Source: Gammaproteobacteria bacterium (GTDB taxonomy: Bacteria; Pseudomonadota; Gammaproteobacteria; JABABF01). From it: a stretch of 35,130 bases of DNA. Position numbers and translations under genes: made by a program. This document shows, piece by piece, positions 10,869 through 32,463 of this stretch. The number at the start of each line of letters is the position of its first letter. Within the stretch, counting starts at the first letter, position 1. The notes below the pieces were generated by a model. That model was not told the origin of the DNA. It ran no database searches and saw only the letters and a list, made by a program, of their open reading frames with translations. Location: positions 1-35,130 of the forward strand of contig JABABF010000088.1 of assembly GCA_014238345.1 (NCBI GenBank), read 5' to 3'.

Positions 10869-10877
10869 TGGCCGTGT

Positions 10878-14049: not shown

Positions 14050-14153
14050 CAGACCTTGCCTCCCCCTGTCCTGTTTTCACTATATGACTGCATAACGATA
14101 GTCCGCAAAAAGTGGGGAACCATTATTTATGCCCACCTATACCTGCGCCTGCG

Positions 14154-15866
14154 TCAATTATTAATCACAACCGGCGTGATCATTACGATGGTTTCCACCT
14201 CGGCCCAATTTTGGTTCTTGTTAATATCAAAGTCAGTATTTGCGGTCTTACCATAATTTCCTCGACGACGACGCAAACCGCTCAGCACCAAAGATTCCCC
14301 CGACTGCAACATGGCACGCTGGTTGAAAACATTTTCTGTCAGCGAAGGCAAGTTGACCTGGGAGCCGTTGCCAACATCAATAGCGGCACCAATCGTAGCT
14401 TCGCGCAATGTACCAGTCACCTGCAACACCACACGCCTACTGTCGAGTATATTCACTAGTGCATAGAAACTGACACCAGACTCAATTGTGCCTGGCTCAA
14501 ACACAACATTAGAGCCGAAACTATCAACATTGCGCGAGATCTCGGAAATATAAGAAAGCGTTTCGCTACGCTTCACCTCCACAGCCTGATGGTTGTACAC
14601 CAGGGCTCTAGGTGCCGTCTCTACACTGACCTCTCCTTGGGAACGCAAAGCGGTCAACACCGAACTGATGTAGTGCGAGCCATCTGCAGACCCTGAAATA
14701 TGCTCAGGCGTATTGCTACTAGCAATGGTTAATGCATCCCCAGCAAACGCCACACTGACATCCGAGCCCAGCAAGCGAGATTGCACTACTGACCAGTCCA
14801 CGCCGAAAGAATGTGCGTCGTTTAATGTCACCTCAATAACGCGAAACTCAATTATCATTTTGCGCTGCATGTCGGTATTCAGATCATTTATAAAACGTTC
14901 TACCGCCAATACTTTGGCAGCCGGAGCTGTAACAGAAATTGTCGCACGACTAATATACTGCTCTTGTGAACCTTCGCCGTCGAGGATGGCATCAACAGCA
15001 CTTTGAAGATCATCCCAGAATTCGCCGCCATTCTCTTCAAAGCCAACAAACTGGTTACTCGAACCAAAAGAGGCGCTGATACTGCCTCCACCGCCCGATT
15101 GCACCCCCGCATTACCACCGCCGCCGCCACTTGAACCAATATCGTAATCTTGGTCACCCTGCGGGTGCATCATGCGGAAAGAGCGAGTCAAATAAGCATG
15201 CCAATGGAGTGCTTCACCCTCGGCTTCTACTGTATAAGCATAGTCTGTCAGCTGTGTGACTCGATCCAGCATCTCTTGCACTGTACCTTCGAAATCCAGA
15301 GTAACGGGGCGCCCTGCGTCCAACCAGCTATCTCCGGACATCAACTGCTCCAGTTCACCAGCCAGCCTTTTGTTGCCAGCTTCTTTCTTGATCGCTACTC
15401 GCAATCCCTTCGCCTGCACTTGCTCGTCTGCTATACCATAGAGAATCAAGGGTGCGTCTTCGATTTGCAACATCACCTGATTCATGAGCCACTCCAACGG
15501 CAGATCCCGTGCATTAACCACTACGCGCTCTTGCAACCACGCCATTTGTGCATCGCGCGACACCCACTCAAAGGCGGTATAGGGCGAGTCATGGAAGCGC
15601 ACTAAAGGGCGCTCAGGGAACTGCGACTCACGCAATTGCTCCATATCATCTTTCAGGTAAAAGCGATGTTCATTAATCTGATTAGCGATATCACCACCAG
15701 ATAGTGATCTAATGATCCCACACCCAGATAACGGCATCAGCACTAATGCCAGTAGCCCCAGCACACTTAAACTTTGCCCACCGCTACTGATGATGCTTCG
15801 CACGACCCGTCCTCGCCCTACTAGCCATAGCCCAGCACTTGCCGCACTTGTCCTGTTTCTAATCAT
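14154..15866 (-). CDS. Type IVb pilus outer-membrane secretin, lipoprotein (R64 PilN / BfpB-like)
   Basis: The 570-aa ORF has GAGGA 5 nt upstream of the ATG and a lipobox LSG|C after a hydrophobic signal. A Gly-rich linker (GSSGGGGGNAGVQSGGGG) follows. The C-terminal secretin-domain pattern is VVLQVTGTLREA...QRAMLQSGESLVLSGL...VETIVMITPVVI. Confidence 0.8.
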   Translation of the reverse strand: MIRNRTSAASAGLWLVGRGRVVRSIISSGGQSLSVLGLLALVLMPLSGCGIIRSLSGGDIANQINEHRFYLKDDMEQLRESQFPERPLVRFHDSPYTAFEWVSRDAQMAWLQERVVVNARDLPLEWLMNQVMLQIEDAPLILYGIADEQVQAKGLRVAIKKEAGNKRLAGELEQLMSGDSWLDAGRPVTLDFEGTVQEMLDRVTQLTDYAYTVEAEGEALHWHAYLTRSFRMMHPQGDQDYDIGSSGGGGGNAGVQSGGGGSISASFGSSNQFVGFEENGGEFWDDLQSAVDAILDGEGSQEQYISRATISVTAPAAKVLAVERFINDLNTDMQRKMIIEFRVIEVTLNDAHSFGVDWSVVQSRLLGSDVSVAFAGDALTIASSNTPEHISGSADGSHYISSVLTALRSQGEVSVETAPRALVYNHQAVEVKRSETLSYISEISRNVDSFGSNVVFEPGTIESGVSFYALVNILDSRRVVLQVTGTLREATIGAAIDVGNGSQVNLPSLTENVFNQRAMLQSGESLVLSGLRRRRGNYGKTANTDFDINKNQNWAEVETIVMITPVVINN

Positions 15867-15946
15867 TGCATTCCTCGTTTGGGTCTGTAGAGTTTGCCTG
15901 CTAAAGCCACTCTATACCTGAGTTTTTTGTATCTGTGATCAGCGGT

Positions 15947-16618
15947 TTAGCGGTAGCGCTCCACCACTGTATCTAGAGAGTGCGGGGGATCTAAGATGCG
16001 CTTGGCCTGCAGAGCGTCGCCACAACTCACTGCACGCCCGGTATAGAGTCCCACAGTACTACCCGACTCCCGCAAATAGACCGGGAAGCCCAAGGTATCA
16101 AGGGTCGAATACAGATGCTGTGCACTAGCCATATCATCATAGACAGCTATACGCAGTGTCCATCGGTATTGATCTGCACCAGCCCCCGCCCGCTGACACT
16201 TGGCCTCTTCCCTGCGCATGGAAGCCGCAATTGCCGCCGCTCGTTTACGGGGATCAACAACACGTGCTTTTTTAGTCTGAGTTGCCGCGGATTTAGCAGC
16301 TTTCTTGGCAGCTTTCTTGGCAACTTTTGATTTTTTCGCTGAGGATTTAGTGGTTGCCTTAGCTGCGGCTGCTTTGTCCGTAACCAGCGGGGCTGGCTCT
16401 GTAATAGCGCCACCAGTTCGCGCCGAAAAATCAAATGATTCACATGAAGAAAGTAGTAGGAACACGGGCACCGCCATCAGCATCCCTAACGCCTTAAACG
16501 CCTTATCAGCCCCAGAACCAGAACCAGCACTAATAAGCGCCCTAGCTAATGCCCCTGAGTTCCCCGAACTCACCCCTAGCTGTTTAAATTCTGTCATTTT
16601 GTCTCTCGCCTTATTCAT
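15947..16618 (-). CDS. Lipoprotein with a Lys/Ala-rich basic linker and a C-terminal SPOR-like peptidoglycan-binding domain
   Basis: The 223-aa ORF has AGGA 8 nt upstream of the ATG and a lipobox LSS|C. It has a low-complexity stretch KKSKVAKKAAKKAAKSAATQTKKAR. The C-terminus WTLRIAVYDDMASAQHLYSTLDTLGFPVYLRESGSTVGLYTGRAVSCGDALQAKRIL fits the SPOR pattern (beta-alpha-beta-beta repeat, 'W.v.vg.f....A..l...L...G'). Confidence 0.7.
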   Translation of the reverse strand: MNKARDKMTEFKQLGVSSGNSGALARALISAGSGSGADKAFKALGMLMAVPVFLLLSSCESFDFSARTGGAITEPAPLVTDKAAAAKATTKSSAKKSKVAKKAAKKAAKSAATQTKKARVVDPRKRAAAIAASMRREEAKCQRAGAGADQYRWTLRIAVYDDMASAQHLYSTLDTLGFPVYLRESGSTVGLYTGRAVSCGDALQAKRILDPPHSLDTVVERYR

Positions 16619-16642
16619 GATTGTATTCCTTGCGCGGTATTG

Positions 16643-17695
16643 CTACTTTGACTTATCAGCATCAGCACCAGCACCAGCATCAGGACTCTTTGTTGGAGTG
16701 GGGTCGTCGCTACGCTGCACCGCTAGCGTAGCCAAACCGTATCGACGATCCAGTGCCTTGGACATACGATCCGCTTGACGCTTGCTCATATCACGACCGA
16801 CATAGAGACCGCTAAAAACTCGAGAGCCACTTTGAACCTGCGACAAATAGGAGGTGAAATTATCTGAGCGCAACCGCTTCAACATACGCTGAGCACCCGC
16901 ATCACTATCGTAGACCGCAACACGCACTGCCCACCGATTACGCCGACTACGTTTTGATGGTTGTGATTGAGCCTGCTCCGCCCGCTCAGCCCGCCGCCGC
17001 TCCGCACGCTCCCGCCGCTGGTCACGACGAGACAGCGGCGCCACATCAGTAGCAGCTGCCCTCCGACTAGTGCGCTGCTCACCTTGACATGCTGGCAGGG
17101 CTCGCTCTAGGCGCACAGGAGAAGTTGAGCAACGCAACGCAGTTTTGTCAACCTTGGTGTGCCGGTCAGCATCACGCACCACTACCACTCGATTCGGATA
17201 GTAAATGTCTGCCACCAACGGCCGGTTCATCAGCAACAGCTGTTGCAAGGCTTCCTCAAAGCAGTCAAAACGCAGCTTATAAGGCTGCACTATGCGGCGA
17301 TCTTCTTCTGGCTTCCATTCAAGACGCATACCGTAGTGACCCGCCAGCCGTTGCACTGTATGAGACAGATCCGAGGCAGCGACATCTAAACAGTGGAGAC
17401 CCCGTCGCGGCACCACATTGATCGTTTCTGGCGTATTGTCGTGCCCAGCACGAATAGCTGATCCGCTAATAGCGCGCGACCCACTATCACTAACGGAAGC
17501 AGCAAGTCCAGATGACCCAAGATCGGTGCTAGCACCTACTGGCACCTCAACATTCCACAACCCACCGCCAGAGCCCACGGAAGAGCAGGCACCGAGTGTC
17601 CAAACCATCGCGACAAGCGCCAGACTTGGCAACAGGCGCAAACGCGAAAAGCGTGAGCACACTATTCCTGTGTTTACTCCTATGCCTATTCCCAT
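16643..17695 (-). CDS. PilL/TcpQ-like pilus lipoprotein fused to a C-terminal SPOR-like domain
   Basis: The 350-aa ORF has AGGAG 9 nt upstream of the ATG and a lipobox LGA|C. The central segment LDVAASDLSHTVQRLAGHYGMRLEWKPE...FEEALQQLLLMNRPLVADIYYPNRVVVVRD has the STN/TcpQ-like pattern seen in PilL proteins. An Arg-rich linker (RRDQRRERAERRRAERAEQ) follows. The SPOR-like end is WAVRVAVYDSDAGAQRMLKRLRSDNFTSYLSQ...GLYVGRDMSKRQADRMSKAL. Confidence 0.65.
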   Translation of the reverse strand: MGIGIGVNTGIVCSRFSRLRLLPSLALVAMVWTLGACSSVGSGGGLWNVEVPVGASTDLGSSGLAASVSDSGSRAISGSAIRAGHDNTPETINVVPRRGLHCLDVAASDLSHTVQRLAGHYGMRLEWKPEEDRRIVQPYKLRFDCFEEALQQLLLMNRPLVADIYYPNRVVVVRDADRHTKVDKTALRCSTSPVRLERALPACQGEQRTSRRAAATDVAPLSRRDQRRERAERRRAERAEQAQSQPSKRSRRNRWAVRVAVYDSDAGAQRMLKRLRSDNFTSYLSQVQSGSRVFSGLYVGRDMSKRQADRMSKALDRRYGLATLAVQRSDDPTPTKSPDAGAGADADKSK

Positions 17696-17740
17696 TATCT
17701 TTTTCTCCTAAACTCTCTTCACACTATCAACAAGCGCTGC

Positions 17741-17770
17741 TCACTGTTCTGCAACTCACTGTTCTGCAAC
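17741..17770. repeat. Perfect 15-bp tandem direct repeat x2 (tcactgttctgcaac) in a 296-bp AT-rich intra-operon gap; candidate regulator-binding site
   Basis: Direct read: 17741-17755 is identical to 17756-17770. It lies 46-75 nt upstream of the PilL-like gene ATG (17695). On the minus strand each unit contains TTGCAG. Confidence 0.9.
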
Positions 17771-17991: not shown

Positions 17992-19989
17992 TCAGCACGG
18001 GGCTGCCACGGTGGCAGGGTTGGGATCTGTGGGGCATTTCGGGCCAATACACTGCATACAACTCAATGCCCCCACCGTCGATGCCTCGATCACAACTGTC
18101 GTTGTATTCACGGCAGCACCCGCGCTATTGTCACGCGCCATATTCAACAAATCTGTCTGCAAGCTAGCGCTAGCACTACTGTCGCTGATTGCAGGACTGA
18201 GCATGCGAAACGGGTTGTGCATGCTAATCTCAGTGGGCCAGACGAAATCGACCACCGCATGTTCCCAACCCGGCACGGGCCCCAAGGAAGCCGCATAGGG
18301 AGTGCTAGCATAACTATAGCCCTGCTCATCCCACGGCCAGTTGCGCGCACCATGGGCGAGGACAAAATCCACATCGCGCAATTCTAGCCGCTCCACATAA
18401 ACATGGTCATGTCGCAATGCAGTTTTGGGGCCCAGCGATACGACTGGGGAGTTGTACAGATCAAGCGCACTGCGTTGCCGAATTAATGATGATGGATCAG
18501 TGGTCGGCAGACCACCGATCACCAGGTTGTCGGGATCGTCTAGATCACGACTGCCCGCAAAAGCAAAGCCAGCCACCTGAGCAGATACCTGATGCGAACC
18601 ACGGTAGCTCAGACCAGCTGGCTGCCCCAGCTCGCGCTGCCCCGCTACGATCGAAGTGCTATATTGCCGCAAATAATCCCACAGTTCCACGGTTATCGTC
18701 CCAGAACTAGTGGCGGCGGCAAGGATCGTGTCGGTAGAAGCCAAACTCACATGAGTACCCGGACGTATGACCAACACATTGTTGTGCCAATCAAATGATC
18801 TGGGGCTGTACGGAGCCACGCCATAAGGAAAATAATTCGTGCCGTAAGCCGAACCAGATGTACCGTAGTGAGCAACGCAACAGGCTCCCGCTTGATCGGC
18901 CTCGCCAGGACGTGCTGCCAATACCGCCAAACCCGCCGATGGAAAATGTGGATCCTCGGCTAGGCGGGCGAATTGCACTGCAGTCTCAACGACTAATGCC
19001 TGCGTGCTATCAATGCCGTAAGGGGCGAGACGCAATGCCCCATAGTACGGGCTAAGGATGGACTCGGGGGGGAGAGCAACCCGTGCGCCGGGGGCATCAA
19101 GACGCACATTGCCGCCGAGCACTAATAGACCTGCTCGCAACGCAGACAAAATATCTAATTCAGTCGGATTTGATGGCGGCTGCAACAACTCCTCTTCAGA
19201 GAGCGTATACGCCTCGTTACGGCGCTGCACCTCAATGCCAACATTAGAAAGCGTTGTGCAATTGCCACTGGTCAGAGCATTGGCATTTTGCACGCGTGAA
19301 GATGGCACTAACGCAGCAATGTAATGCGCCATGCAGGCAAATGGACGGGGCAATTCCATATACAACCGCAAGCCTTGCTGACCAGCAAAGTCCGCCAGCT
19401 CTTCCGCCGTGTTGATCGCTACATCAAGATCCGCATAGGAGGTACTGGAACTCGCCACTCGCCACGCAGATGCCCCGGTGGTTGGCACGGGTTGCAATCT
19501 CAGGGCACCACCAAGTACAGATTCGAGCGCCAAAGCCCTCCTGGTTCCTCCCAGCAGCTGATCCGCACTATCGGTTACATCCCCACGAATAATATCCAAT
19601 TCAGTGCGCCACTCTGTCGGCGGTATATATCCCTCCCGCAAGAGGCGCCGCACACCAGAGATATCAGCTAAGTCCATGTTGCCGTCGCCATTGCAATCGT
19701 CGTCGAGTTCTTCAATACCAGCAACCGTCGGTGTCACTAAGAACTCTTCGACACAGAAGTCTACTGGCCACACCTGATTATGAGTACGGTAGAGCAACGC
19801 CGCATCAACAATTTCGCGCAGCTCAGCGGCTGCACGGTCAGCCAAAGAGAATAGGTGAGCCTCGCGGCGGTGCTGTAGTTGTAGCGAGAAAAAGAGTAGT
19901 AGCACTGATAGCACCAGGGATAGCTCGAGCAATGTCACGCCGCGCACCGCCCACCGCTGGCGGATGCCTGTGCCTAGGGAGTCGGGCAT
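17992..19989 (-). CDS. Giant pilin-like protein 3 (class III signal peptide, 665 aa)
   Basis: GGGAG lies 6 nt upstream of ATG 19989. The leader is MPDSLGTGIRQRWAVRG|VTLLELSLVLSVLLLFF (Glu at +5). It shares the N-terminal module with the two upstream paralogs (AALLYRTHNQVWPVDFC...DCNGDGNMDLAD...LLREGYIP). The C-terminus is Cys-rich (LSCMQCIGPKCPTDPNPATVAAPC). The start overlaps the upstream gene by 16 nt. Confidence 0.8.
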   Translation of the reverse strand: MPDSLGTGIRQRWAVRGVTLLELSLVLSVLLLFFSLQLQHRREAHLFSLADRAAAELREIVDAALLYRTHNQVWPVDFCVEEFLVTPTVAGIEELDDDCNGDGNMDLADISGVRRLLREGYIPPTEWRTELDIIRGDVTDSADQLLGGTRRALALESVLGGALRLQPVPTTGASAWRVASSSTSYADLDVAINTAEELADFAGQQGLRLYMELPRPFACMAHYIAALVPSSRVQNANALTSGNCTTLSNVGIEVQRRNEAYTLSEEELLQPPSNPTELDILSALRAGLLVLGGNVRLDAPGARVALPPESILSPYYGALRLAPYGIDSTQALVVETAVQFARLAEDPHFPSAGLAVLAARPGEADQAGACCVAHYGTSGSAYGTNYFPYGVAPYSPRSFDWHNNVLVIRPGTHVSLASTDTILAAATSSGTITVELWDYLRQYSTSIVAGQRELGQPAGLSYRGSHQVSAQVAGFAFAGSRDLDDPDNLVIGGLPTTDPSSLIRQRSALDLYNSPVVSLGPKTALRHDHVYVERLELRDVDFVLAHGARNWPWDEQGYSYASTPYAASLGPVPGWEHAVVDFVWPTEISMHNPFRMLSPAISDSSASASLQTDLLNMARDNSAGAAVNTTTVVIEASTVGALSCMQCIGPKCPTDPNPATVAAPC

Positions 19990-22070
19990 CGCGGGCTCCC
20001 AGCAACACAGTTCAAGCTCTCCACTTGCTCTATGCCTCCATCAAGTGATGTGATAGCAGTCTGTCCAAATAGCCCATCGCGGCCATTGACAGTGAAATCC
20101 AAAGTGCTAATCTGCATGCCTGCCAAATTCATCGAGGCCTCATGCAACTCGAGATCCAGGCCGATGAGCCTTGGCACATAGGACAATCTCAGATTGTTGG
20201 TATGGAATTGTAGCTCGACCGCAGTAGACGGACTCAGAACAAAACCGCTGGGATAACCGCTGGGCACTATCCCACCAGGTGCGCCAGCACCCACCAATGG
20301 CACCCGCATAAAATCCCCTCGTTGTGCGGGCGATTGCAGTACCCCAGCAGAGCTGAGTGTCCCAGCGGGCGGATCGTAGTGCAGACCCTCGACCACAGTC
20401 AATTCATTCAACAAAATGCCATCCCCGGGATAACGATAGGCATCAGAGTCGGGCAAACCTGCGTCATCCTCGGAATCCATCACAAAGTACAAGGAGGCAG
20501 AAGAACTGAAACTGCCATAGAAATTGTGGCCGGGCATAATCGACATCCGCCCGCCATAAATGCGGATGGCTCCCACTTCATAATTGCGCACATTGTAGAG
20601 ACGCAAGCCCAATGAGTCCGACTGCTCCAGTGATGCGGCAGGGGACAGTGCTGCAATCGGGGTGCCGAGCTCGCTGACATGGGCGCGCCAACCAGCATGG
20701 CGGCTGGCACGCGCCGCATCGCCGACCGACAAAGTAATCGCTCGGTCGATAAAGGCTACATCACTTAGGGAGCTATCATCGTAGGCATAGGACAGCAAGT
20801 CGGCGCTGAGCAGGCCTATATGCGTACCGTCAAGGCGCTCAAAAGCCAACGAAGACAAATGCCGATGATCGCGTGTTGTCTGAGTAAAAGTGGATCGACT
20901 AGCATCGGCACCCCCGGGCACATAACCGGACATTATTGCCAAATGTCCTTCATCGACTCCGCGCAAGGTGACAATACCGCCGAGCGGTGCCGTGGGATGG
21001 GTAGTAGCCTTGGCAAATTGAATCATCGCATCGGTCGAGGCGACATCCTCAAGGGTAGCAACGGCAGCGCGCAAGCGCAATTCACCGGTATTCATCGCAT
21101 CAAGTAACATCGGGATACCAGCTCCCCCAGCACTCGTCAACCGCAGCTGCGGCGTGAATATCGTCTCGTAGCTCAGTTCCTCAACATCAGGCAAGGAAGT
21201 AGGTGGCTCCCAGCGCCGCAAATACACCTCGACTGCTAACTCGCGTGTTGCCAGACGGCAGCTCCCCAGATCCTCGGGGGGCACCGGGTGATAGACATCA
21301 GCAGCGTCCGGAACCCCCGTCACTAGCAACGGGGGATCTGGCTCATACTGGACACCAAACAGTGACTGCACCAACGTTGCGTTGGGAACCCGCTGAGAGA
21401 TATCGCGGGCAAAGCAACCATAAGGACCTTCGTCTCCTCGAGGCAAGATGTAGCGTATCCGGAGCCCAGGAGCATCCCCAGGATGATACGTCCCCGTCGA
21501 AGTAATGGTCAGCAACCGGCTATCCCCGGGTTCATAAATCTCCCAATAAGCTGTGGTGTGGTAGCGCCCATGCTCCGCGGGAAAAAGTGGAGCCTGAGGA
21601 GAGAGAAGCGTACTGAGCGCGGTTCTCTGTGCAGGAGCGATACGATGCACTGGCGACATGATAACCTGCGTATCAAAGAGTGTCTTGCCCCGAGCGAATT
21701 GCCCGATCCCCAAGGCACTGAGACCTTTATCTTTGAGATAACCTGAGGCAACTAGCTCCCTGAGGCCGTTAATATCCCTGAAGTCGCGCACAAGATCAGC
21801 ATTGCAGTCCGACCGCTCTCCCTCTATATAAGCGTTGTAAATACAATCATCGAGCGGCCAAACACCTTCGTGTATCTGGTAAGCCATGGCGGCATCAACC
21901 ATGCTCTGTATTTCGGTCGCCACTTGAGCAACGATCTGTTCATGAATTCTGCGCTGATCGTAGTCTAGATAAAGCGCTGAGAGGATGACAATCAACGAAA
22001 TTACGATTGACAACTCAATCAACGTCGCACCACGGCAACGCAATTGCCGCAAGTAACTACGGGCACACAT
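19974..22070 (-). CDS. Giant pilin-like protein 2 (class III signal peptide, 698 aa)
   Basis: The leader is MCARSYLRQLRCRG|ATLIELSIVISLIVIL. The shared module is AAMAYQIHEGVWPLDDC...DCNADLVRDFRD...LVASGYL. The C-terminus is LNCVAGSPRCPTP. The start overlaps the upstream gene by 14 nt. Confidence 0.8.
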   Translation of the reverse strand: MCARSYLRQLRCRGATLIELSIVISLIVILSALYLDYDQRRIHEQIVAQVATEIQSMVDAAMAYQIHEGVWPLDDCIYNAYIEGERSDCNADLVRDFRDINGLRELVASGYLKDKGLSALGIGQFARGKTLFDTQVIMSPVHRIAPAQRTALSTLLSPQAPLFPAEHGRYHTTAYWEIYEPGDSRLLTITSTGTYHPGDAPGLRIRYILPRGDEGPYGCFARDISQRVPNATLVQSLFGVQYEPDPPLLVTGVPDAADVYHPVPPEDLGSCRLATRELAVEVYLRRWEPPTSLPDVEELSYETIFTPQLRLTSAGGAGIPMLLDAMNTGELRLRAAVATLEDVASTDAMIQFAKATTHPTAPLGGIVTLRGVDEGHLAIMSGYVPGGADASRSTFTQTTRDHRHLSSLAFERLDGTHIGLLSADLLSYAYDDSSLSDVAFIDRAITLSVGDAARASRHAGWRAHVSELGTPIAALSPAASLEQSDSLGLRLYNVRNYEVGAIRIYGGRMSIMPGHNFYGSFSSSASLYFVMDSEDDAGLPDSDAYRYPGDGILLNELTVVEGLHYDPPAGTLSSAGVLQSPAQRGDFMRVPLVGAGAPGGIVPSGYPSGFVLSPSTAVELQFHTNNLRLSYVPRLIGLDLELHEASMNLAGMQISTLDFTVNGRDGLFGQTAITSLDGGIEQVESLNCVAGSPRCPTP

Positions 22071-24381
22071 AGCGAGGACTATCTCCGGGAGCCGGACAAC
22101 TCACCCCTTCCGATGAGGCAGTACAGGCCCAACAAGCCAAGTGGGAGATGCTCTGTGCAGTCAACATGCCAATTTGTAGGCCACGCACAATGTCTGTGCC
22201 CGAGCTGGCAACAGGATAGTTGCTCTCACCATACCACAACCCGAGCGGCATGTTGAACTCCAACGCAGCGGCTCCCAGCAATCGCAACGGTGTGCGACCG
22301 CCAGCCGTATTACCACCGAAGTCGATCACATCTAAGCTGGTGGTGCTGGTCGTAATTTTCCCCAAAACCACTGGCCAAGCACTGCGGTTCGTAGCCTCGG
22401 TCTCCTCTATGGTCACTTGGCGCTGGACACCACTGCTATGAGCATAGCTGTAAATATCCGTATCAACCGCAAGCCCTAGGTGCACCCGGGCAGCCCGTGG
22501 CGCACGAGCATCGCTGAAGTTGAAGTAGCTGTCGTAATCACCCACCGACAGCCCCGCAGCGCTGAATAAAGCACGTTGATGCAGACCAGGCTCACGCACC
22601 ACATCACTGGAATTACTCAGGCTCTCATCAGACCACAGCTCTAGGCTACCATCAACACCATCGCCAATCTCTACAAAACCGCCATCGTCGCTGAAGTACA
22701 CACTGAGCTTCGGCAATACCATTGCTGCATCCTCAGTCTGCGAGGCAATGGTGAACATCGCCCCAGCATCGGCTGGATTACCACAGGATGTAGACCCCGA
22801 TATCGACAACAACGCTGGTAGTGTGCAGAAATCCAGTAACTCTTGGATGCTGAGCGCAGCCGCTCCCGCCGGATACACCAGCGGGTTCTCATCCAAGAAC
22901 AGCTGATCGTGGAGTAAGCCCCTCAGCGACCCCAATAGACGCGGCGCACCGCTACTGTAGTAGCGAACCGACAGCCCTAGGGCAACGCGCGCATCTCCCT
23001 CCCTGGCATCGCGTATACGATCGGATGCCCCCGCTGGAACTGTTGCGGGATCCGGGAAAATAGCTGGACTCCCGCTAGGGTGATCGTAAATACCGCCGAG
23101 CAATAGAGCGGTGCGAGTCGCCTCGGTGCGCAAATCCCCTGCGCTACTGGCAGCAGCTGCGGCATCAATGACCAGCGACTGGGTGCTGTAGTCGCCTGGA
23201 TAAGCAAAATATGACTGCAGATTGCCCGTGCTAGTGTGGATCAATCCACCCGTAACAGGGTCTATAGTCACGGCGCGCAACGCGGGGCGGTCGTCCAAGC
23301 TGCTCTGACGCAACAGCGTGATGCCATCGTCGAAATAGCCCGCCGTCAGTCTTTCAACAATTTGCAGGCGGTCGGGTAAAGCCCGTAATTCAACACGGTT
23401 GCCGTAATCAGAATTGCTGCCAACAGTCTCCAGTGCAGCGACACCGAAGATCAGCGCGGGAGCAGGGCTGATATTGGCGGTTACTGAAGTTGACACTGCG
23501 GCACCGTCAACCGATATAGGGATAGCACTCCCAACTGAGAGAGAACTCGTAACGATCGGCACGGCACCATCAGTCGCTGTGCCAAGACGCTGGCCTTCCA
23601 CATTGATACGCACTGAGCCACCAGCCGCATCTAGATAGGGGCGCACCCGGAGCAACCCCGGTTGCGGGGCATCCAACACCACCCGCCGGTCAATAACGAG
23701 CCGGTCAGTAAACACGGTCGCTATATCCCTATCTACATCGGTAGGAAAAAGTTGTGCCAGCAGGATATCGTTATAACCACCAAACCGGACTATGCTGACC
23801 AGCCGCGTCTCCCCAGCTTGCTCCACAACCTGCGCTCCGGGTATGAGACGGGCGATGTAGCCAGCATAGCGGGAAATCGATGCCTGCACGATGGTCTCCA
23901 TACGCAGGCTATCCGATGTCAACACGGCGGCGAGACCACTCCGGGTAGATACCGCTGCACTGGCCACCGTCCATGGTTGTAGGGCGACCCACTCGCCACC
24001 GCGCGCTTGGTTTTCTATGTAGCGCGGCAAAGCAGGCAAGCGACCCGCTTCCACCAGAGCCGTCATACCGCTATAGTCCAAGTCATCGCTACGGCCATCG
24101 CCATTGCAGTCACGGCTACTGACTGCATGCAGGCGAGAGCAGCTATTCAGGGGCCACTCACCCATATGGTAACGATGCACCAGTGCCGCATTGAGTATTT
24201 GGCGCAGTTCCAAGCCATGTGCGATGGCATAATTGCGCGATTGGTCGCGCACTTTCTCCAAAGTTCCAATGGCCAGTGCGATTGCTAAAAACACTAATAA
24301 CACCGAGAGATCAATCAAGGTGATGCCGCGACAACGGCGCAACGGCGCGATATGCTGATGGGAGTTGAAAATAAAATTCAT
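22057..24381 (-). CDS. Giant pilin-like protein 1 (class III signal peptide; 774 aa from ATG 24381, 797 aa if GTG 24450 is used)
   Basis: The leader is MNFIFNSHQHIAPLRRCRG|ITLIDLSVLLVFLAIALAI (Asp at +5). The shared module is AALVHRYHMGEWPLNSC...DCNGDGRSDDLD...LVEAGRLP. The C-terminus is LACWACTASSEGVSCPAPGDSPRYVCP. ATG 24381 is preferred because a perfect TATAAT (24441-24436) lies inside the longer ORF extension. Confidence 0.8.
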   Translation of the reverse strand: MNFIFNSHQHIAPLRRCRGITLIDLSVLLVFLAIALAIGTLEKVRDQSRNYAIAHGLELRQILNAALVHRYHMGEWPLNSCSRLHAVSSRDCNGDGRSDDLDYSGMTALVEAGRLPALPRYIENQARGGEWVALQPWTVASAAVSTRSGLAAVLTSDSLRMETIVQASISRYAGYIARLIPGAQVVEQAGETRLVSIVRFGGYNDILLAQLFPTDVDRDIATVFTDRLVIDRRVVLDAPQPGLLRVRPYLDAAGGSVRINVEGQRLGTATDGAVPIVTSSLSVGSAIPISVDGAAVSTSVTANISPAPALIFGVAALETVGSNSDYGNRVELRALPDRLQIVERLTAGYFDDGITLLRQSSLDDRPALRAVTIDPVTGGLIHTSTGNLQSYFAYPGDYSTQSLVIDAAAAASSAGDLRTEATRTALLLGGIYDHPSGSPAIFPDPATVPAGASDRIRDAREGDARVALGLSVRYYSSGAPRLLGSLRGLLHDQLFLDENPLVYPAGAAALSIQELLDFCTLPALLSISGSTSCGNPADAGAMFTIASQTEDAAMVLPKLSVYFSDDGGFVEIGDGVDGSLELWSDESLSNSSDVVREPGLHQRALFSAAGLSVGDYDSYFNFSDARAPRAARVHLGLAVDTDIYSYAHSSGVQRQVTIEETEATNRSAWPVVLGKITTSTTSLDVIDFGGNTAGGRTPLRLLGAAALEFNMPLGLWYGESNYPVASSGTDIVRGLQIGMLTAQSISHLACWACTASSEGVSCPAPGDSPRYVCP

Positions 24382-24435
24382 GCGCTCAGAACAGCTCCGC
24401 ACAACAGCCAAACCTGAAGTTGTGTCTACAATGCG

Positions 24436-24507
24436 ATTATAACAGACCACATCCCTGTAAGCAGGCGTTTCATGGCACTAGTTTCATGGCACTTTTCACA
24501 GCACTAG
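24436..24507 (-). promoter_or_regulatory. Candidate activator-dependent internal promoter: perfect -10 TATAAT without a good -35, preceded by about three 14-bp direct repeats
   Basis: The minus-strand TATAAT is the reverse complement of 24436-24441. The plus-strand repeats are gtttcatggcacta (24467-24480), gtttcatggcactt (24481-24494) and ttcacagcactag (24495-24507, degenerate). They would span roughly -38 to -78 from a start site near 24429. Confidence 0.35.
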
Positions 24508-24530: not shown

Positions 24531-25289
24531 TTAGGGCATCGAACCAACAGCCGCACAGGGGTCTAATGCTGCGCTACTCGCAAATGCTCCCAATCCCCCC
24601 AATGCAACGGCCTGCACCGCAGCTTCATAACCTTGCACCGAGCTATCACTGGCAATGGCGTTGGTAATTGGTGTACGGAGCGTCACGGTGGCGCGATTTA
24701 TACTTCTATCCTCTTGTAACGCCACCCGGTGTCTCCCTAGGTAAGGGAGAATCCGTCTACTAGCCTGGAACTCTGTCATATTTTCTAGCATCGGGAGTTG
24801 TACTAGTATATGGGTCAGTTGACGCTCCGCAGGACGTGTACCCACCTCCCCCGTAATCGCCAGCACTGAAGCCTCTAAACTCGGGGGGTATCGCTCATAG
24901 TAGACATCGTAGAAAGTACTGGTCAACGCATTTGCTCCGGCCTGCACATCGGTCAACGACAACGACAAGCTGGCGTGAGAGTTTAGCTGGCCATTGCTGT
25001 TGACCACCACCAAACGCCTGTCATCTGCACCTGACTCGAAAAGCTCCGTCAATCCCTGCTCAATCGCCCGACAATTCTGCCAATAGAATCGTTCTGCCCT
25101 AAGCGCTATATCCTCCATGATCACTAGACTTAGCTGACCCTGAGCATCCTTGCGGGAATCCTCACGCAGAAAAACCGCCGCAGAAGCGATGACCACGATC
25201 ACGGCCAGTGAGATAGATAGCTCAATCAGCGTAGTGGCGCGCTGGCGGCGATACCGCAAATCATAAATAGGGCGCGATTGCTGCGTCAT
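24531..25289 (-). CDS. Minor pilin-like protein (252 aa) with Ala at the -1 position
   Basis: The leader is MTQQSRPIYDLRYRRQRA|TTLIELSISLAVIVVIASAAVFL. It has Glu at +5 and the hydrophobic alpha1-N helix typical of type IV pilins. Confidence 0.75.
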   Translation of the reverse strand: MTQQSRPIYDLRYRRQRATTLIELSISLAVIVVIASAAVFLREDSRKDAQGQLSLVIMEDIALRAERFYWQNCRAIEQGLTELFESGADDRRLVVVNSNGQLNSHASLSLSLTDVQAGANALTSTFYDVYYERYPPSLEASVLAITGEVGTRPAERQLTHILVQLPMLENMTEFQASRRILPYLGRHRVALQEDRSINRATVTLRTPITNAIASDSSVQGYEAAVQAVALGGLGAFASSAALDPCAAVGSMP

Positions 25290-25467: not shown

Positions 25468-26274
25468 TCAAGCCACCAACAAGGCGGCGGCGATGCTAGC
25501 GAGCACCAACGGCACCGCCAAGCCCCCCCCCCGTAGCGGCCATCTGTCAGCTAACAACAACATGACCACTAGGCAAACCAGCCCGACCCAGCCGCCCCAA
25601 GCCCCTGCGGCAGCGGCCAGCGCCAGCAATTCCAGCTCTGGCCAGACACGATGCCGCCACCGCAGCCACAGCGCAACCAAGGCCACCGCGCCACCCGCCG
25701 CCCACAGCGCCACAGCGGCTGTAACAGGGTCGGACACGGCCGATAACAGGCCGAGCCACAGCGGCCACCAAGCAATGGCAGTCGGCAACCAGTCATGCTC
25801 CAACACCAAACACAGTGCAGCGAGCCAGCAACCAAGTGCCACCCACAGCATCAGTAGCACCACCAGCTCGCCGCCCACGCGCCAAGCGGCGAGAGAGAAT
25901 AGCACCACCGCCATCAATTCCAGCCATAGATAACGGGCGGGGATGCGTGCGCCACAGCCAGCACAACAGCCGCGCAACCAAAGATAACTCAGTAACGGGA
26001 TGTTGTGCCAAGCGGGAATCGGGCATTGGCAAGCTGGGCAATGCGAGCGCGGCACGGCTAGATTGTAGGGAGCAGAGCCACCAGGCAACTGCTCGGGAGC
26101 CACACCGCCTAACAGTGCCACACGACGCTCGGCCATCAATGGCAAGCGGTGCACCATCATATTGAGGAAACTCCCCGTGCTGGCACCTACCAGTATTGAC
26201 AGCATCGGGCCAAGCCATGGCACCGCCTCCAGCACAAGACGCAATTCGCCCAACCATCCCCACTCAATCATCAC
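25468..26274 (-). CDS. Prepilin peptidase (A24 family) homolog with an intact N-terminal CxxC...CxxC domain but no recognisable GxGD catalytic motif
   Basis: The 268-aa ORF has GSFLNMMVHRLP, then CPACQCPIPAWHNIPLLSYLWLRGCCAGCGARIPARY (collinear with P. aeruginosa PilD CPRCGHEIRPWENIPLVSYL..CSSC). It also has WLPT...PLWLGLL and LLALAAAAGAWGGW (PilD: GDFKLLAMLGAWGGW). No GD dipeptide occurs anywhere in the ORF. Confidence 0.75.
   Translation of the reverse strand: MMIEWGWLGELRLVLEAVPWLGPMLSILVGASTGSFLNMMVHRLPLMAERRVALLGGVAPEQLPGGSAPYNLAVPRSHCPACQCPIPAWHNIPLLSYLWLRGCCAGCGARIPARYLWLELMAVVLFSLAAWRVGGELVVLLMLWVALGCWLAALCLVLEHDWLPTAIAWWPLWLGLLSAVSDPVTAAVALWAAGGAVALVALWLRWRHRVWPELELLALAAAAGAWGGWVGLVCLVVMLLLADRWPLRGGGLAVPLVLASIAAALLVA
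25523..25532. repeat. C10 homopolymer (G10 on the coding strand) near the 3' end of the peptidase-like gene
   Basis: Direct read: aag-cccccccccc-gtagc. It encodes ...LRGGGLA..., about 22 codons before the stop. Confidence 0.95.
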
Positions 26275-26448: not shown

Positions 26449-27117
26449 TCAGAACGAGTAGAGGGCATCCACAGCGCTGAGCGTGGCACTATCCCCTGGA
26501 GGGGCGTAGGTGGCAGCCTGATACTGTGCAGTGGCGAGGTAGTTGAGACCCCCCGACGTTGCCATAGTGTTTTGCTCAGCTGCATTCGAAGCAATCGCTG
26601 CCGCTCCCAAGTCTAATGCATTGACTAATGGAGCCACGGCATAGCTAGGAACGCTATCGTGACGAATCACGATGGAGCGAGTGTTGAATGAAAACAACAC
26701 CACATCACCACCCCATGGATTCGCGCTTGCGAACCCAGCGCTGGAGCCAGTAGAGCGCGTTGCACCTGCACCAGCGGCAGCGGTGAAGCCTTGCGCCGCT
26801 GTGGCGAGACGTGAGTCACCCAGTGCATCAGTGATGAGAGCCGTGGCTGTGTCTGACACCGGGCACGAAGATGTGCCACAGTTCAGAAGGCCAGAGCCTG
26901 CTGGGCCAACGGCGCCGCTGATGCGGGCGATGGCTGATACGAGATTGGCACTAAGTGCCGCTGCCGCAGTGACGGTCTGGGAGCGCTGTACCTGCCTAAA
27001 GGAGATAAGCGCACCCGCTACGATCAGGGCAATGATGACCACAACGACCGATAATTCGATCAGTGTGGCGCCCTGCTGTTGCTGTTGCCCGCGAAGGGCT
27101 TGCAGTTTTTGGTTCAT
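26449..27117 (-). CDS. Type IVb pilin B (222 aa, 16-aa leader); candidate major subunit
   Basis: GGAG lies 9 nt upstream of the ATG. The leader is MNQKLQALRGQQQQQG|ATLIELSVVVVIIALIVAGALISF. There is one Cys pair (NCGTSSCP). It is paralogous to pilin A through to the C-terminus (ANPWGGDVVLFSFNTRSIVIRHDSVP.. versus ANPWGEDIELLSYNLVSIVVRHHGVP..). A strong terminator follows. Confidence 0.85.
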   Translation of the reverse strand: MNQKLQALRGQQQQQGATLIELSVVVVIIALIVAGALISFRQVQRSQTVTAAAALSANLVSAIARISGAVGPAGSGLLNCGTSSCPVSDTATALITDALGDSRLATAAQGFTAAAGAGATRSTGSSAGFASANPWGGDVVLFSFNTRSIVIRHDSVPSYAVAPLVNALDLGAAAIASNAAEQNTMATSGGLNYLATAQYQAATYAPPGDSATLSAVDALYSF

Positions 27118-27467
27118 TTGGAGTTACTCCGTTTGTTATTTGGTTTGATTGTGTTGACTGCTAGAAGGTTCTGCCGTTGAGGCCACCTCACTACCAGAGA
27201 CACGGACACATCCCCACTCTAAGGCATCAGCGCAGGCTGTGTCAACCCCCCCTCTACACTGGTAACAGCAGGGTTATCGACCCCCGCTGAGCCGTGGTGC
27301 CGCCTAGTGATTGAGCCAAGATAGCACTGATTGCCTAGTGCCAAAAGACACTGGCGTGGTCACCGATTGATCGAGCAAGGATCGGACATGCCTTAGCAGG
27401 CACTCATCCCAAAGGCTCATTTCCGGATTAGGGAATGCTGGATTGCGCTTGGCGTGAAATGGGCAGA

Positions 27468-27608
27468 CTATACCTTAAGCCTTAAGCGATTAGGGCGCCG
27501 CCAGTAAAATCGGCTGAGTGCCGAGGCGAGTAGCAAGGCAATCGTCACCACCACGATGGAGAACTCAACCAGAGTTCCTCGTGGCTACTCTAGTGATTTA
27601 GTGCTCAC
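27468..27608 (-). pseudogene. Decayed pilin N-terminal remnant (in-frame TAG before the processing site, truncated after the alpha1-N helix)
   Basis: The minus strand reads GTG AGC ACT AAA TCA CTA GAG TAG CCA CGA GGA ACT CTG GTT GAG TTC TCC ATC GTG GTG GTG ACG ATT GCC TTG CTA CTC GCC..., that is (M)STKSLE*PRG-TLVEFSIVVVTIALLLASALSRFYWRRPNRLRLKV*. It resembles RG|ATLIELSVVVVIIAL of the flanking pilins but lacks one residue. It is interrupted by a stop and ends after 37 codons. A 7-bp duplication (ccttaag x2) lies at 27473-27486. Confidence 0.6.
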
Positions 27609-27653
27609 CAGATCAATCGGGCAACAAAATAACGGCTCAGTTGACGAACTAGT

Positions 27654-28346
27654 TTAACGGCTCAGGAGCAAGTATAAGCCGTCTACAAAGCTGAAATTTT
27701 CATCGGGAGCGCTGATCGGACTATCGGCGAACAACTCATAATCCGAGCCTGAGGCAATGACAAAATCAGCGTTGTCTCTCAATGCCTCTGCCCCAGCAAT
27801 GTCAGTCGCCACTTGCGCTGCCCCCGTATCCAGTACATTCGCAAATCCCTGTAATGCATGAGTTGGCACCCCGTGGTGGCGCACCACTATAGACACCAGA
27901 TTATAGGATAGCAACTCTATATCCTCGCCCCAAGGGTTGGCACCTCTAAAGAGTGCTGGCGAAGCCAATCCTACTATATCACCCTCACTGGCGATGCGAA
28001 AAACCACATCATCTAAAAGATCGGCAACGGTCATCTCAAAATCATGGGCGAATGTCCAAATACCACTATTTGGTAAGAACTCAACATATACGCCAGCACC
28101 CACCAGCCCAGCACTACCGACCAGACTCTGTACCGCTGCAATAATCCTCGTGTTCTGCTCTACTGCAGATGCAATGGTTCTGGCTCGCTGTGCTTGGAGA
28201 AAAGACACCAACGCCCCCGCTATAATCAAAGCGATAATCACCACCACCACTGACAGTTCAATCAGTGTGGCACCGCGCCGACGTTGCCAACGTTGCTTGC
28301 CTTGATTGAGATCAAGTGATCGTTTAGGGGAAGTATAGACTCTCAT
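27654..28346 (-). CDS. Type IVb pilin A (230 aa, 25-aa leader), cysteine-free
   Basis: GGAGG lies 7 nt upstream of ATG 28346. The leader is MRVYTSPKRSLDLNQGKQRWQRRRG|ATLIELSVVVVIIALIIAGALVSF. There is no Cys anywhere in the ORF. Confidence 0.85.
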   Translation of the reverse strand: MRVYTSPKRSLDLNQGKQRWQRRRGATLIELSVVVVIIALIIAGALVSFLQAQRARTIASAVEQNTRIIAAVQSLVGSAGLVGAGVYVEFLPNSGIWTFAHDFEMTVADLLDDVVFRIASEGDIVGLASPALFRGANPWGEDIELLSYNLVSIVVRHHGVPTHALQGFANVLDTGAAQVATDIAGAEALRDNADFVIASGSDYELFADSPISAPDENFSFVDGLYLLLSR

Positions 28347-28531: not shown

Positions 28532-29569
28532 TCACAATGACTGCAAGTTCTGGGTATTAGTGTAGACAGCGAAGATCATCATGCCATAGCCTAAGCCGAC
28601 TACGGCAAAAAGTATCGCTTGCACGGGTTTAACCGTCAGTCTCACACGGTCGAGTACCGCCTCACCACTCTTGCGCGAGACACGTTGCATGGCATCCATA
28701 AAACCGCGGTGTTGAGCCAATAACTTCAACAGTGACATCTCGCTTTTGCCAAGGAATCCAACATCAATCACATCGGCAAGTGTGCCGCCCTCCTGCAGAC
28801 GGTTCATCATCTTGCGCAAGTACAACCGCGCCAATGGCGGGGAACTGTCGTGCATCAGGCGCAATACACTGCGCATCTCCATGCCTGACAACAGCACTAA
28901 TGATATCGATTCAACGGTCTTGGCTGCCGTATTTTGCCGGTACATGGAAAAGATCGGCAGCTGGTCTATGAACTGTCGACCAGGTCCTGCATAGCGCGTT
29001 AGGAACATACCGAATAGCACGATGACCGTAGTAGATGTGACGAAGAAAATCAGCGTGTGATGGACAAAAAAATCGCCAATATGGTAGACAATGCGACCGG
29101 GCAGAGTCCATTCCTCAATCGGCTTGATATGCAGAATCAGCGGATAGAACCGTATCCGCATCTGGGTGTACATGGTCGCCACAAGCGCTAAAAAGAGCAC
29201 GGGTGGCAACAGCTTGCCCAGTATTTCGCCTAATACACCGACCTCACTCTCCATGATATCGGCAATGCGTAAGCCATTGTCAACAAAATTGGGGGTTTGT
29301 TCGCCAGCGGCCAACGACCCGACCACTACTGGGTCGAATAATCCCTGCATACCTCGCGCAACTGGCTGACCTGCACGCAATGCCTCGTACATGCGCTTGG
29401 CCACCATCTGATCCACCGGATTTCCGACAGCACGAATGTTGATCAGAGCATCGCGTAACGGCACTCCCTCTTTGAGCAGGGAAAAGAAAGAGCGCACATA
29501 GTCCGACTGTTGTTTACGCCCAAATTGCAAGCGCAATACACCATCGTTTAAATCCTCAAAGAATGACAT
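28532..29569 (-). CDS. Pilus assembly platform protein (GspF/PilC family; R64 PilR / BfpE-like)
   Basis: The 345-aa ORF has AGGTG 5 nt upstream of the ATG. It has two T2SS-F-like repeats (LLKEGVPLRDAL...LRAGQPVARGM...SLAAGEQT and LLSGMEMRSVL...LQEGGTLADVI...SLLKLLAQHRG), each followed by hydrophobic TM segments. Confidence 0.8.
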   Translation of the reverse strand: MSFFEDLNDGVLRLQFGRKQQSDYVRSFFSLLKEGVPLRDALINIRAVGNPVDQMVAKRMYEALRAGQPVARGMQGLFDPVVVGSLAAGEQTPNFVDNGLRIADIMESEVGVLGEILGKLLPPVLFLALVATMYTQMRIRFYPLILHIKPIEEWTLPGRIVYHIGDFFVHHTLIFFVTSTTVIVLFGMFLTRYAGPGRQFIDQLPIFSMYRQNTAAKTVESISLVLLSGMEMRSVLRLMHDSSPPLARLYLRKMMNRLQEGGTLADVIDVGFLGKSEMSLLKLLAQHRGFMDAMQRVSRKSGEAVLDRVRLTVKPVQAILFAVVGLGYGMMIFAVYTNTQNLQSL

Positions 29570-29656
29570 CTAGACACCTAATCCGAATCGCCTAGAGCAG
29601 CCGGCAATGGGCTGGAGAGCATGGCTACAGTCAACATTAAGCAACATCAAGCAACA

Positions 29657-31450: not shown

Positions 31451-31487
31451 TGTGACTCTCCCTAAGATTACATGCCGCCGATTAAAC

Positions 31488-32312: not shown

Positions 32313-32463
32313 GGCTCCCTGACCCCCTGTAATCCATTGATTGCTGTTGATAATCATCATTCTTGGTTTATTGACGCTGATGCCAGTGTCACTTTGCCCT
32401 CTCAAATATGCCAAGATACCGCGGGGCTAAAACCGCCCCAGCACACCGATAAGACCCTCTCAT

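Follow-up and report, generated by a model that had tools for sequence, protein, structure and literature searches.

The large minor pilins CofB, TcpB and LngB of the CFA/III, TCP and Longus pili are each encoded by one gene of a type IVb cluster, have ~420–520 amino acids (aa), form homotrimers, and combine an N-terminal pilin module with extra domains that no sequence signature recognises. Modular pilins have already been catalogued as a widespread class whose members reach up to 860 aa (PMC8179133). Here we examined three tandem genes, A, B and C, in the pilus cluster of a gammaproteobacterial contig (JABABF010000088.1; the entire contig, 35,130 nucleotides (nt), is referred to as the window). 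The three proteins share with CofB, TcpB and LngB the type IVb setting and the architecture of a pilin module followed by unrecognised domains, and by analogy they would likely have a tip role in priming, and possibly in retraction, one ATPase serving the whole system. Unlike those proteins, the members of the A/B/C family have 650–880 aa, and instead of one gene there are three diverged paralogues, accompanied by a 252-aa pilin and marked by a conserved EF-hand-like loop. It is very likely that the three proteins belong to this pilus as modular minor pilins. The fuller statement, for which we judge the chances to be about even, is that they are anciently duplicated modular minor pilins that co-assemble at the tip of a type IVb pilus encoded on the chromosome of a gammaproteobacterium with a small genome.

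The three open reading frames (ORFs) follow each other on the minus strand (Table 1), and their coordinates, their lengths and the overlaps of 14 nt (A/B) and 16 nt (B/C) are those given by the original prediction, which was made from the letters of the window. The independent ENA gene call chose the shorter form of A, beginning at Met24, and a GGGAG motif stands 6 nt 5' of the ATG of gene C. The class III prepilin signals that had been reported for the three proteins are all present. Relatives were recovered on a 1.73-Mb chromosome (L001/L003), a 20.6-kb contig (L002) and a 4.5-kb contig with 2x coverage (L004), and the comparison of nine A, B and C sequences revealed the motif G↓(A/I/V)TL(I/F/L/V)(E/D), followed by a hydrophobic stretch, in 9/9. 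The Gly at −1, the acidic residue at +5 and the basic leader residues before the Gly were strictly conserved in all nine; the +5 residue was Asp in A only and Glu in B and C.

Pilin membership was judged from profile searches, because the Pfam N_methyl model is sub-threshold or absent for these proteins. The Pfam and NCBIfam scan of A, B, C and five orthologues returned only sub-threshold N_methyl hits, and single-sequence searches of the PDB with A, B and C found nothing significant. The B-family profile matched full-length Neisseria PilE structures in the PDB (2hi2; E 1.4e-5, residues 16–105), as well as ~240 generic pilins among 1.84e9 representatives, the latter by way of their N-terminal regions (profile positions ~1–140, mostly 5–80). 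The AlphaFold2 model of full-length B, based on an 8-row alignment, had a mean predicted local distance difference test (pLDDT) of 40, with 60–84 for residues ~14–240, and contained a helix at 17–68 and strands at 135–145, 202–208 and 231–236. For C residues 1–360 (10 rows) the model consisted of an α1 helix at 20–71 (pLDDT 85–90) and strands at 162–168, 206–213, 231–234 and 250–257 with helices between them; the strands were modelled at pLDDT 65–85 and the loops at low confidence. In Foldseek searches the top hit of the B model was CofB (E 0.04) and that of the C model was CofA (E 0.5, TMt 0.44); TcpB and CofB stood further down in the results for the C model. These hits agree with a type IVb-like pilin module in the models and are no proof of it. 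The pilin fold is an extended α1 helix packed against an antiparallel β-sheet. Modelling had been proposed as the way in which this fold could be refuted, and the models predicted a long α1 helix leading into an α/β region; the structural comparison asked for at the same time did return CofB and CofA as top hits, both of them below threshold. Foldseek matches to the C-terminal 400 residues of B were discarded as meaningless, the model being unusable in that part (pLDDT 20–35).

We then compared the three paralogues with each other. Pairwise BLASTP aligned N-terminal parts only (E 4e-12 to 5e-11), and profile–profile comparison of the orthologue profiles with hhalign gave E 3e-16 to 3e-21. The homology ends at about residue 140 between A and B (E 2.8e-16), at 272 and 324 between A and C (E 1.5e-17), and at 369 and 357 between B and C (E 2.8e-21 over 324 columns). 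The shared module of ~90 aa that had been described earlier is real, far beyond chance, but it is merely the core of this longer shared region. Similarly, the divergence said to extend over more than 500 residues in each protein is real, while the unmatched part actually comprises ~300–525 aa. The architecture is that of a modular pilin: a shared pilin-like region that ends at ~270–370 and then 300–525 paralogue-specific residues. A recognisable non-pilus functional domain, as found in other modular pilins, was not detected in the extra modules of A, B and C, which in this respect resemble the case of CofB.

The C-terminal halves of A, B and C showed no similarity to each other, except for weak matches of the Cys tails between A and C and between B and C (E 0.06–0.08), and no internal repeats were found in the C-terminal regions. 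The original prediction could fit these domains to no family by eye, and our searches of Pfam, NCBIfam and the PDB with the three proteins and their orthologues likewise gave no match for them. The exhaustive HMMER search of the 1.84e9 representatives found no relatives of the C-terminal half of B. A word-indexed search with a chimeric query of the C-terminal parts of A and C recovered only A and its L001 orthologue; it missed the known orthologues of C, so that it is uninformative for C. The last 100–150 residues are the least conserved, with 25–38% identity in A and C and a more mixed 30–51% in B. The most conserved stretch of all three proteins is the centre of B (residues ~321–520), which is 55–74% identical to its orthologues, exceeds even the pilin module of B in conservation, contains invariant runs such as TDAMIQFAKA, GGIVTLRGV and GDAARASRHAGWRA, and belongs to no known family. 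This centre may act as an interface or as an active site. The overall profile fits variable distal ends carried on a conserved scaffold. An RGD motif in B was also considered and dropped, since it is not conserved in the orthologues.

The orthologues keep every Cys of the mature proteins, of which A has 8, B has 6 and C has 10, an even number in each case. The Cys-rich tails noticed earlier are real and conserved as well (Table 1). B and C have a second conserved Cys pair near the end of the module (219/271 and 219/244, respectively), which A does not have. The even, conserved counts would fit disulfide-bonded exported proteins. In addition, we found the loop DxNxDGxxDxxD (consensus DCNGDGxxDxxD, following D/N-x-D/N-x-D/N...D/E) once, and at the same position, in 9/9 of the sequences. 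Two Cys residues are invariant, one at loop position 2 and the other 10–19 residues upstream of it. Ca2+-binding loops of the EF-hand or dockerin type have 12 residues, with oxygen ligands at positions 1, 3, 5, 9 and 12, and a helix after them. The PROSITE EF-hand pattern PS00018, a regular expression, was matched by the C proteins of the window and of L001, and the only Pfam hit of the isolated loop-helix segments was Dockerin_1 (PF00404; C of the window, E 0.037, 14.7 bits vs the 22.9 cut-off; A of L001, E 0.053; both sub-threshold). AlphaFold2 predicted a helix directly after the loop (residues 112–118 in C). The loop is probably a Ca2+ site in the αβ-loop of the pilin module. The same 12-residue loop D-x-N-x-D-G-x-x-D-x-x-D with its following helix occurs in the EF-hand-like Ca2+ sites of PilY1 and in the F-hand loops of dockerins. 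In contrast to those, it is here a single loop and not a pair, it lies in the αβ-loop of a pilin module and not in a β-propeller or a dockerin, the Dockerin_1 hits stay under threshold, and metal binding is putative.

The A/B/C family is extremely rare and was seen only in this lineage, that is, in the window and the three other contigs. With B as the query, a word-indexed search of 5.8e9 proteins returned four, and the exhaustive HMMER search with the B-family profile found eight proteins at E≤1e-10, all of which were A/B/C family members or fragments; the only further family hit was a C-like fragment (P0006, E 2.6e-9). A word-indexed search with the profile of the nine N-terminal modules returned fragments and generic pilins only, missing known full-length members, and hence was insensitive. 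A search of the genome collection for related loci found only the L001 chromosome, and metagenome scans with the B family and with the platform protein of the cluster found nothing.

The order A-B-C is kept in L001, L002 and L004 as in the window. Synteny with the window extends from fabG to the SDR/P450 pair in L001 and L002, L004 being too short to include flanks, and the 14-nt A/B overlap is conserved in the window, L001 and L002. One copy each of A, B and C was found in L001 and in L002. In BLASTP, the window proteins were 39–46% identical to their L001 and L002 orthologues (45–46% for C; 39% over the alignment for A and the 884-aa A of L001). In the word-indexed search, the orthologues of B (P0002, P0003 and P0004) were 44–54% identical. 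Between L001 and L002, the identity was 72% for B, 65% for C and 43–69% for the fragments of A in L002 against A of L001; L004 was 53–66% identical to the window in tblastn. The paralogues are 25–42% identical (BLASTP). From the orthologues being closer to each other than the paralogues are, it follows that the triplication predates the divergence of these lineages, each of which has kept one copy per gene. We estimated the ratio of nonsynonymous to synonymous substitution rates (dN/dS) from the pair L001–L002, which is unsaturated (dS 0.44–0.69 for A, B and C). The values were 0.48 for A, 0.41 for B and 0.45 for C, compared with 0.29 for the 689-aa gene of the cluster, 0.23 for the secretin and 0.12 for the platform protein. 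Sequence comparison thus indicates that A, B and C are under purifying selection and evolve faster than the machinery, as expected of exposed proteins. The trio is neither pseudogenised nor a set of recent near-identical duplicates, two of the findings that were to count against the original prediction: the genes are intact and conserved with dN/dS below 1, the paralogues are diverged, and the search for homologues showed the trio to be conserved in L001 and L002, with its order also kept in the fragmentary L004.

The cluster itself is a distant type IVb pilus system. Its marks are a lipoprotein secretin of the PilN family, a TcpQ-like protein, one GspE-type ATPase, and long-leader pilins with a residue other than Phe at +1. 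The best model of the secretin was that of the PilN family of type IVB pili (TIGR02520, E 2.3e-38, under the curated cut-off), and among 72,556 plasmids its nearest annotated relatives were IncI-type PilN proteins (21–29% identity). In R64-type clusters, pilV follows the pilin and peptidase genes, and this position is held here by the 252-aa gene together with A, B and C. The original prediction had placed the trio where a single PilV-type minor pilin would stand. The position is indeed pilV-like, but the trio is not alone in it: the 252-aa prepilin-like gene lies directly upstream, which makes four putative minor pilins. We considered whether the 252-aa pilin is a fourth paralogue of the A/B/C module and rejected this, given that hhalign aligned only 26–54 N-terminal columns, corresponding to the N-terminus of α1.

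According to our proposal, A, B and C would be cleaved and would then bundle their α1 helices into one tip complex, of which the 252-aa pilin would probably be the fourth member. This complex would prime major-pilin polymerisation and, with three different outer modules on display, form the adhesive or ligand-binding end of the pilus. It would correspond to the CofB/TcpB homotrimer, but in heteromeric form. Ca2+ would probably be bound by the conserved loop, which would stabilise the pilin module. Because there is only one ATPase in the cluster, the late incorporation of the bulky A, B and C could also trigger retraction, as proposed for TcpB.

Several observations lean towards such co-assembly over homotrimers. 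The α1 helices, which would form the filament core, are paralogue-specific yet conserved: they are 87–93% identical between L001 and L002, 44–65% between either of these and the window, and 15–31% between paralogues. A alone has Asp at +5 and does not have the second disulfide predicted for B and C. No lineage shows variation in copy number, and the 14-nt A/B overlap has been conserved, a pattern that would also suit joint assembly. By analogy, the tandem minor pilins of other filament classes, which form one tip, point the same way. A heteromeric tip of three minor pilins is the usual arrangement in type II secretion and in the type IVa, Tad and S. sanguinis pili (PMC12075869, PMC8179133), so that an arrangement presented earlier as unusual is unusual for type IVb systems only. 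A more specific version of co-assembly is that A, B and C form an obligate 1:1:1 heterotrimeric tip derived by triplication of a CofB/TcpB/PilV-like homotrimeric minor pilin. This tip would be an intermediate between symmetric type IVb and asymmetric tips, with a structurally new, family-less module on each arm and an EF-hand-like Ca2+ site gating assembly or retraction. We offer this version only tentatively.

A number of results weigh against co-assembling modular pilins and are collected here and in the next three paragraphs. The Pfam N_methyl score of B was 15.0 bits vs the 21.2 cut-off, the model was absent for A and C, and the NCBIfam pilin models were also below threshold or absent for A and C. 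None of the Foldseek matches was significant, and the C-terminal halves were modelled at pLDDT 20–35. The Ca2+ binding that we suggest rests on the motif and the two sub-threshold Dockerin_1 hits, and the stoichiometry and location of A, B and C are what we infer.

Furthermore, the type IVb systems studied structurally (TCP and CFA/III) have homotrimers of one minor pilin (PMC9565799). The same observation speaks for three alternative tips, in which each paralogue would form its own CofB-like homotrimer on separate pili and provide one of three parallel receptor specificities, as a hard-wired equivalent of the R64 PilV shufflon. This explanation appears rather doubtful to us. It would suit C-terminal regions that are mutually unrelated and whose ends evolve fastest, and interchangeable tips do exist in the Kil pili of Myxococcus (PMC12075869). 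The α1 helices and pilin modules, however, would then be expected to be interchangeable, and they are only 15–31% identical between the paralogues while being conserved within each orthologue group. Each lineage has exactly one A, one B and one C, overlapping and coupled ORFs fit a fixed stoichiometry better than independent use, and no inversion or recombination repeats were found.

Gene A of L002 (4348–7039) is split by four frameshifts (frames 1, 2, 3, 1, 2), next to intact B, C and machinery neighbours. The frameshifts are either an assembly error or a very recent pseudogenisation. If they are real, the pilus may work without A, which argues against an obligate trio and suggests, in favour of alternative tips, that the members are singly dispensable. 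They could also be read as a sign that the three genes have no function, as duplicates in decay or wrongly called ORFs, in line with about half of each protein having no family, domain or structure match. This reading is effectively refuted: two genomes have the ORFs intact, at 665–884 aa, and a third has two of the three intact. Moreover, dN/dS is 0.41–0.48 at dS 0.44–0.69, all cysteines are conserved, and the frameshifted fragments themselves contain no in-frame stops and have dN/dS 0.48 against L001.

The last point against co-assembly concerns the prepilin-peptidase homologue of the cluster. Type IV prepilins are cleaved and N-methylated by a dedicated peptidase of the A24 family. It keeps the four-Cys N-terminal domain of the A24 family (E 2e-27), but the A24 catalytic domain (PF01478) was not detected even at E≤10 in any of the 3/3 orthologues. 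The canonical A24 catalytic motifs, including GxGD, define where the catalytic Asp residues are expected. An invariant Asp (D161) lies in the context LExD(W/Y)LPT, and an invariant Glu stands at the expected Asp of GxGD, ahead of LLAL-AAAGAWG. The protein may be an Asp/Glu variant or inactive, and with a peptidase that has no detectable catalytic domain in three genomes, prepilin processing is not assured; it may require an atypical dyad, or a different peptidase encoded at some other place in the genome. For this reason a minor rival is kept alive, namely that A, B and C are not filament subunits but pilin-like proteins that remain anchored in the inner membrane or that the machine exports, as cargo or as a short pseudopilus like that of type II secretion. 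Their large C-terminal parts would then be periplasmic or secreted effectors and not tip adhesins. We consider this unlikely. Uncleaved, the proteins might stay bitopic in the membrane, type IVb systems do secrete TcpF and CofJ by way of the minor pilin (PMC9565799), and the high conservation of the B centre (55–74%) is unlike that of a typical variable adhesin. On the other side, the acidic +5, the Gly at −1 and the basic leader, strict in all nine sequences, make sense only with processing and assembly; the cluster contains two bona fide major pilins and a secretin; and a second peptidase may lie elsewhere in the 1.7-Mb genome.

Among described systems, A, B and C most probably work most like CofB and TcpB, priming assembly and adhering at the tip. 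Sequence does not support placing them in that family, whose members have a pilin domain, a β-repeat and a C-terminal β-sandwich, and the single gene of those systems is replaced by three. No homology to CofB, TcpB or LngB was found beyond α1, and no CofB or TcpB chain appeared in the PDB searches, whether with single sequences (E≤1) or with the profile (E≤10). The R64/IncI PilV system is similar in that the genes follow the pilin and peptidase genes, in its PilN-type secretin, and in having several C-terminal regions on a related N-terminal pilin part. It differs in that the variants are here separate full-length genes with diverged N-termini, all potentially co-expressed. Besides, the present cluster is chromosomal, no conjugation genes are found in the window, and tblastn of C against the 72,556 plasmids gave no match. 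We tried and rejected a shufflon-like inversion: three weak inverted pairs were at chance level, and there was no repeat family and no sfx-like repeat, in agreement with the earlier view of a system without DNA inversion. No Pfam or NCBIfam match to Rci or a recombinase was found among the larger ORFs of the window; the smaller ORFs were not scanned.

The S. sanguinis PilA/B/C, Tad TadE/F/G and Myxococcus KilL/M/N sets also are tandem genes for three distinct minor pilins, some with bulky grafted modules, and a bundle of their α1 helices in a single tip has been demonstrated or proposed (PMC12075869, PMC8179133). Those sets belong to type IVa and Tad filaments, have unrelated sizes, are not paralogous over ~300 aa and often carry vWA or lectin domains, unlike A, B and C, which are all giant and share a common ancestor. 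With the 252-aa gene counted, there are four minor pilin genes in a row as in GspH/I/J/K and FimU/PilV/W/X, and the four could act as a primer with one adaptor member. In contrast to those sets, no sequence relation was found and A keeps an acidic residue, Asp5. In GspH/I/J/K-type sets, GspK is the tip subunit without Glu5 and the only enlarged member.

The idea of a modular tip of three pilins is already established in other filament classes. What is new is the triplication of mutually paralogous giant minor pilins in a type IVb cluster, with orphan C-terminal modules and a conserved EF-hand-like loop. The type IVb pilus in the systems studied is believed to be primed and capped by a homotrimer of one large minor pilin, and other type IV filaments use heteromeric tips. 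With its triplicated minor pilin, whose copies have long been kept distinct, the present type IVb cluster is a concrete case for asking how the symmetry and function of the tip diversify. The trio adds ~1,200–1,400 residues of conserved, Cys-stabilised, surface-destined protein without relatives in ~15 billion predicted proteins, and the C-terminal regions are candidates for new adhesin folds. The small genome of the relative (the 1.73-Mb chromosome) may, speculatively, indicate host association, in which case the pilus could serve in colonisation. With an uncultured organism, a very small family and functional statements that are all inferred, the case is of value for the hypothesis it offers and not as a demonstrated mechanism.

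Table 1. Coordinates of genes A, B and C, of their parts, and of the other pilus genes in the window (the arrow marks the cleavage site in the prepilin signals)
Feature	Coordinates	Strand	Size or residues	Remarks
Gene A, giant modular minor pilin	22057–24450	−	797 aa (GTG 24450) or 774 aa (ATG 24381, Met24)	Signal RCRG↓ITLID, Asp +5
Gene B, giant modular minor pilin	19974–22070	−	698 aa	Signal RCRG↓ATLIE
Gene C, giant modular minor pilin	17992–19989	−	665 aa	Signal AVRG↓VTLLE
A, α1 helix and pilin-like region common with C	23635–24327	−	Residues 42–272	Homology to B only to ~140
B, α1 helix, pilin-like α/β region and central region common with C	20964–22031	−	Residues 14–369	
C, α1 helix, pilin-like α/β region and central region common with B	18919–19941	−	Residues 17–357	
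B, most conserved stretch	20511–21110	−	Residues ~321–520	
A, putative Ca2+ loop	24076–24111	−	Residues 114–125	DCNGDGRSDDLD; Cys at loop position 2 in conserved pair C104/C115
B, putative Ca2+ loop	21774–21809	−	Residues 88–99	DCNADLVRDFRD; conserved pair C76/C89
C, putative Ca2+ loop	19663–19698	−	Residues 98–109	DCNGDGNMDLAD; matches PROSITE PS00018
A, C-terminal Cys tail	22063–22134	−	C773, C776, C785, C796	All four kept in A of L001 (alignment), present in the L002 fragment
B, C-terminal Cys pair	19986–20009	−	C688, C695	Kept in B of L001 and L002
C, C-terminal Cys tail	17995–18060	−	C644, C647, C652, C665	Kept in C of L001 and L002
Fourth putative minor pilin	24531–25289	−	252 aa	Signal RQRA↓TTLIE, Ala −1, Glu +5; N_methyl 19.3 bits, under cut-off
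Prepilin-peptidase homologue	25468–26274	−	268 aa	Orthologues at L001 5503–6342 and L002 2471–3340
Two major-pilin paralogues	26449–28346	−	222 aa and 230 aa	
Platform protein (GspF family), single GspE-family ATPase, protein without family match	28532–32414	−	345 aa, 597 aa, 308 aa	
TcpQ-like + SPOR lipoprotein, second lipoprotein, PilN-type lipoprotein secretin, protein without family match	11980–17695	−	350 aa, 223 aa, 570 aa, 689 aa	

The pilus cluster extends over 11980–32414 on the minus strand, flanked by fabD/fabG (32511–34240) on one side and by an SDR/P450 pair (9603–11702, plus strand) on the other. In the direction of transcription, the genes are those of the 308-aa protein, the ATPase, the platform protein, the 230-aa and 222-aa pilins, the peptidase homologue, the 252-aa pilin, A, B and C, followed by the PilL-like protein (the TcpQ-like + SPOR lipoprotein), the 223-aa lipoprotein, the PilN-type secretin and the 689-aa gene. 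The 222-aa major pilin (26449–27117, minus strand) is the orthologue of the lone pilin of L001 and L002 (48–50% identity). The 230-aa pilin (27654–28346, minus strand; G+C 0.50) is an additional diverged copy that is 36–40% identical, L001 and L002 having one pilin gene. The G+C content of the cluster is 50–57% (0.47–0.60 at third codon positions) vs 58–66% in the flanking housekeeping genes, with the peptidase gene (0.63) as the sole exception. The placement between fabG and the SDR/P450 pair is common to the window, L001 and L002. Because the cluster holds this site in all three genomes, its position suggests an old island insertion between fabG and SDR/P450; acpP and fabF are the usual genes after fabG.

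Two exact intergenic tandem direct repeats were also found. One has AGTGCCATGAAAC twice, 1 nt apart, at ~24467–24493 (minus strand), just 5' of gene A. The other is a 15-nt unit (CTCACTGTTCTGCAA, plus strand) present twice at 17740–17769, between gene C and the PilL-like gene. Both may be binding sites of a regulator. Counts of internal promoters and terminators were no higher than in shuffled sequence, and no RNA families were found in the window.

Outside the cluster, a 968-aa ORF (6356–9262, minus strand) had no Pfam match, and its sole hit was a weak spermidine-synthase-like segment at residues 538–653 (NCBIfam E 1e-5, far under the cut-off). Finally, lysine depletion was considered as a special trait of A, B and C and dropped, since it was the same in all larger ORFs of the window, including the housekeeping genes. 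The predicted proteins of the window are lysine-poor (0.3–2% in most) and arginine-rich (6–13%) at only ~55–63% G+C, as seen, for example, in FabD (33257–34240) and GuaA (1105–2724).

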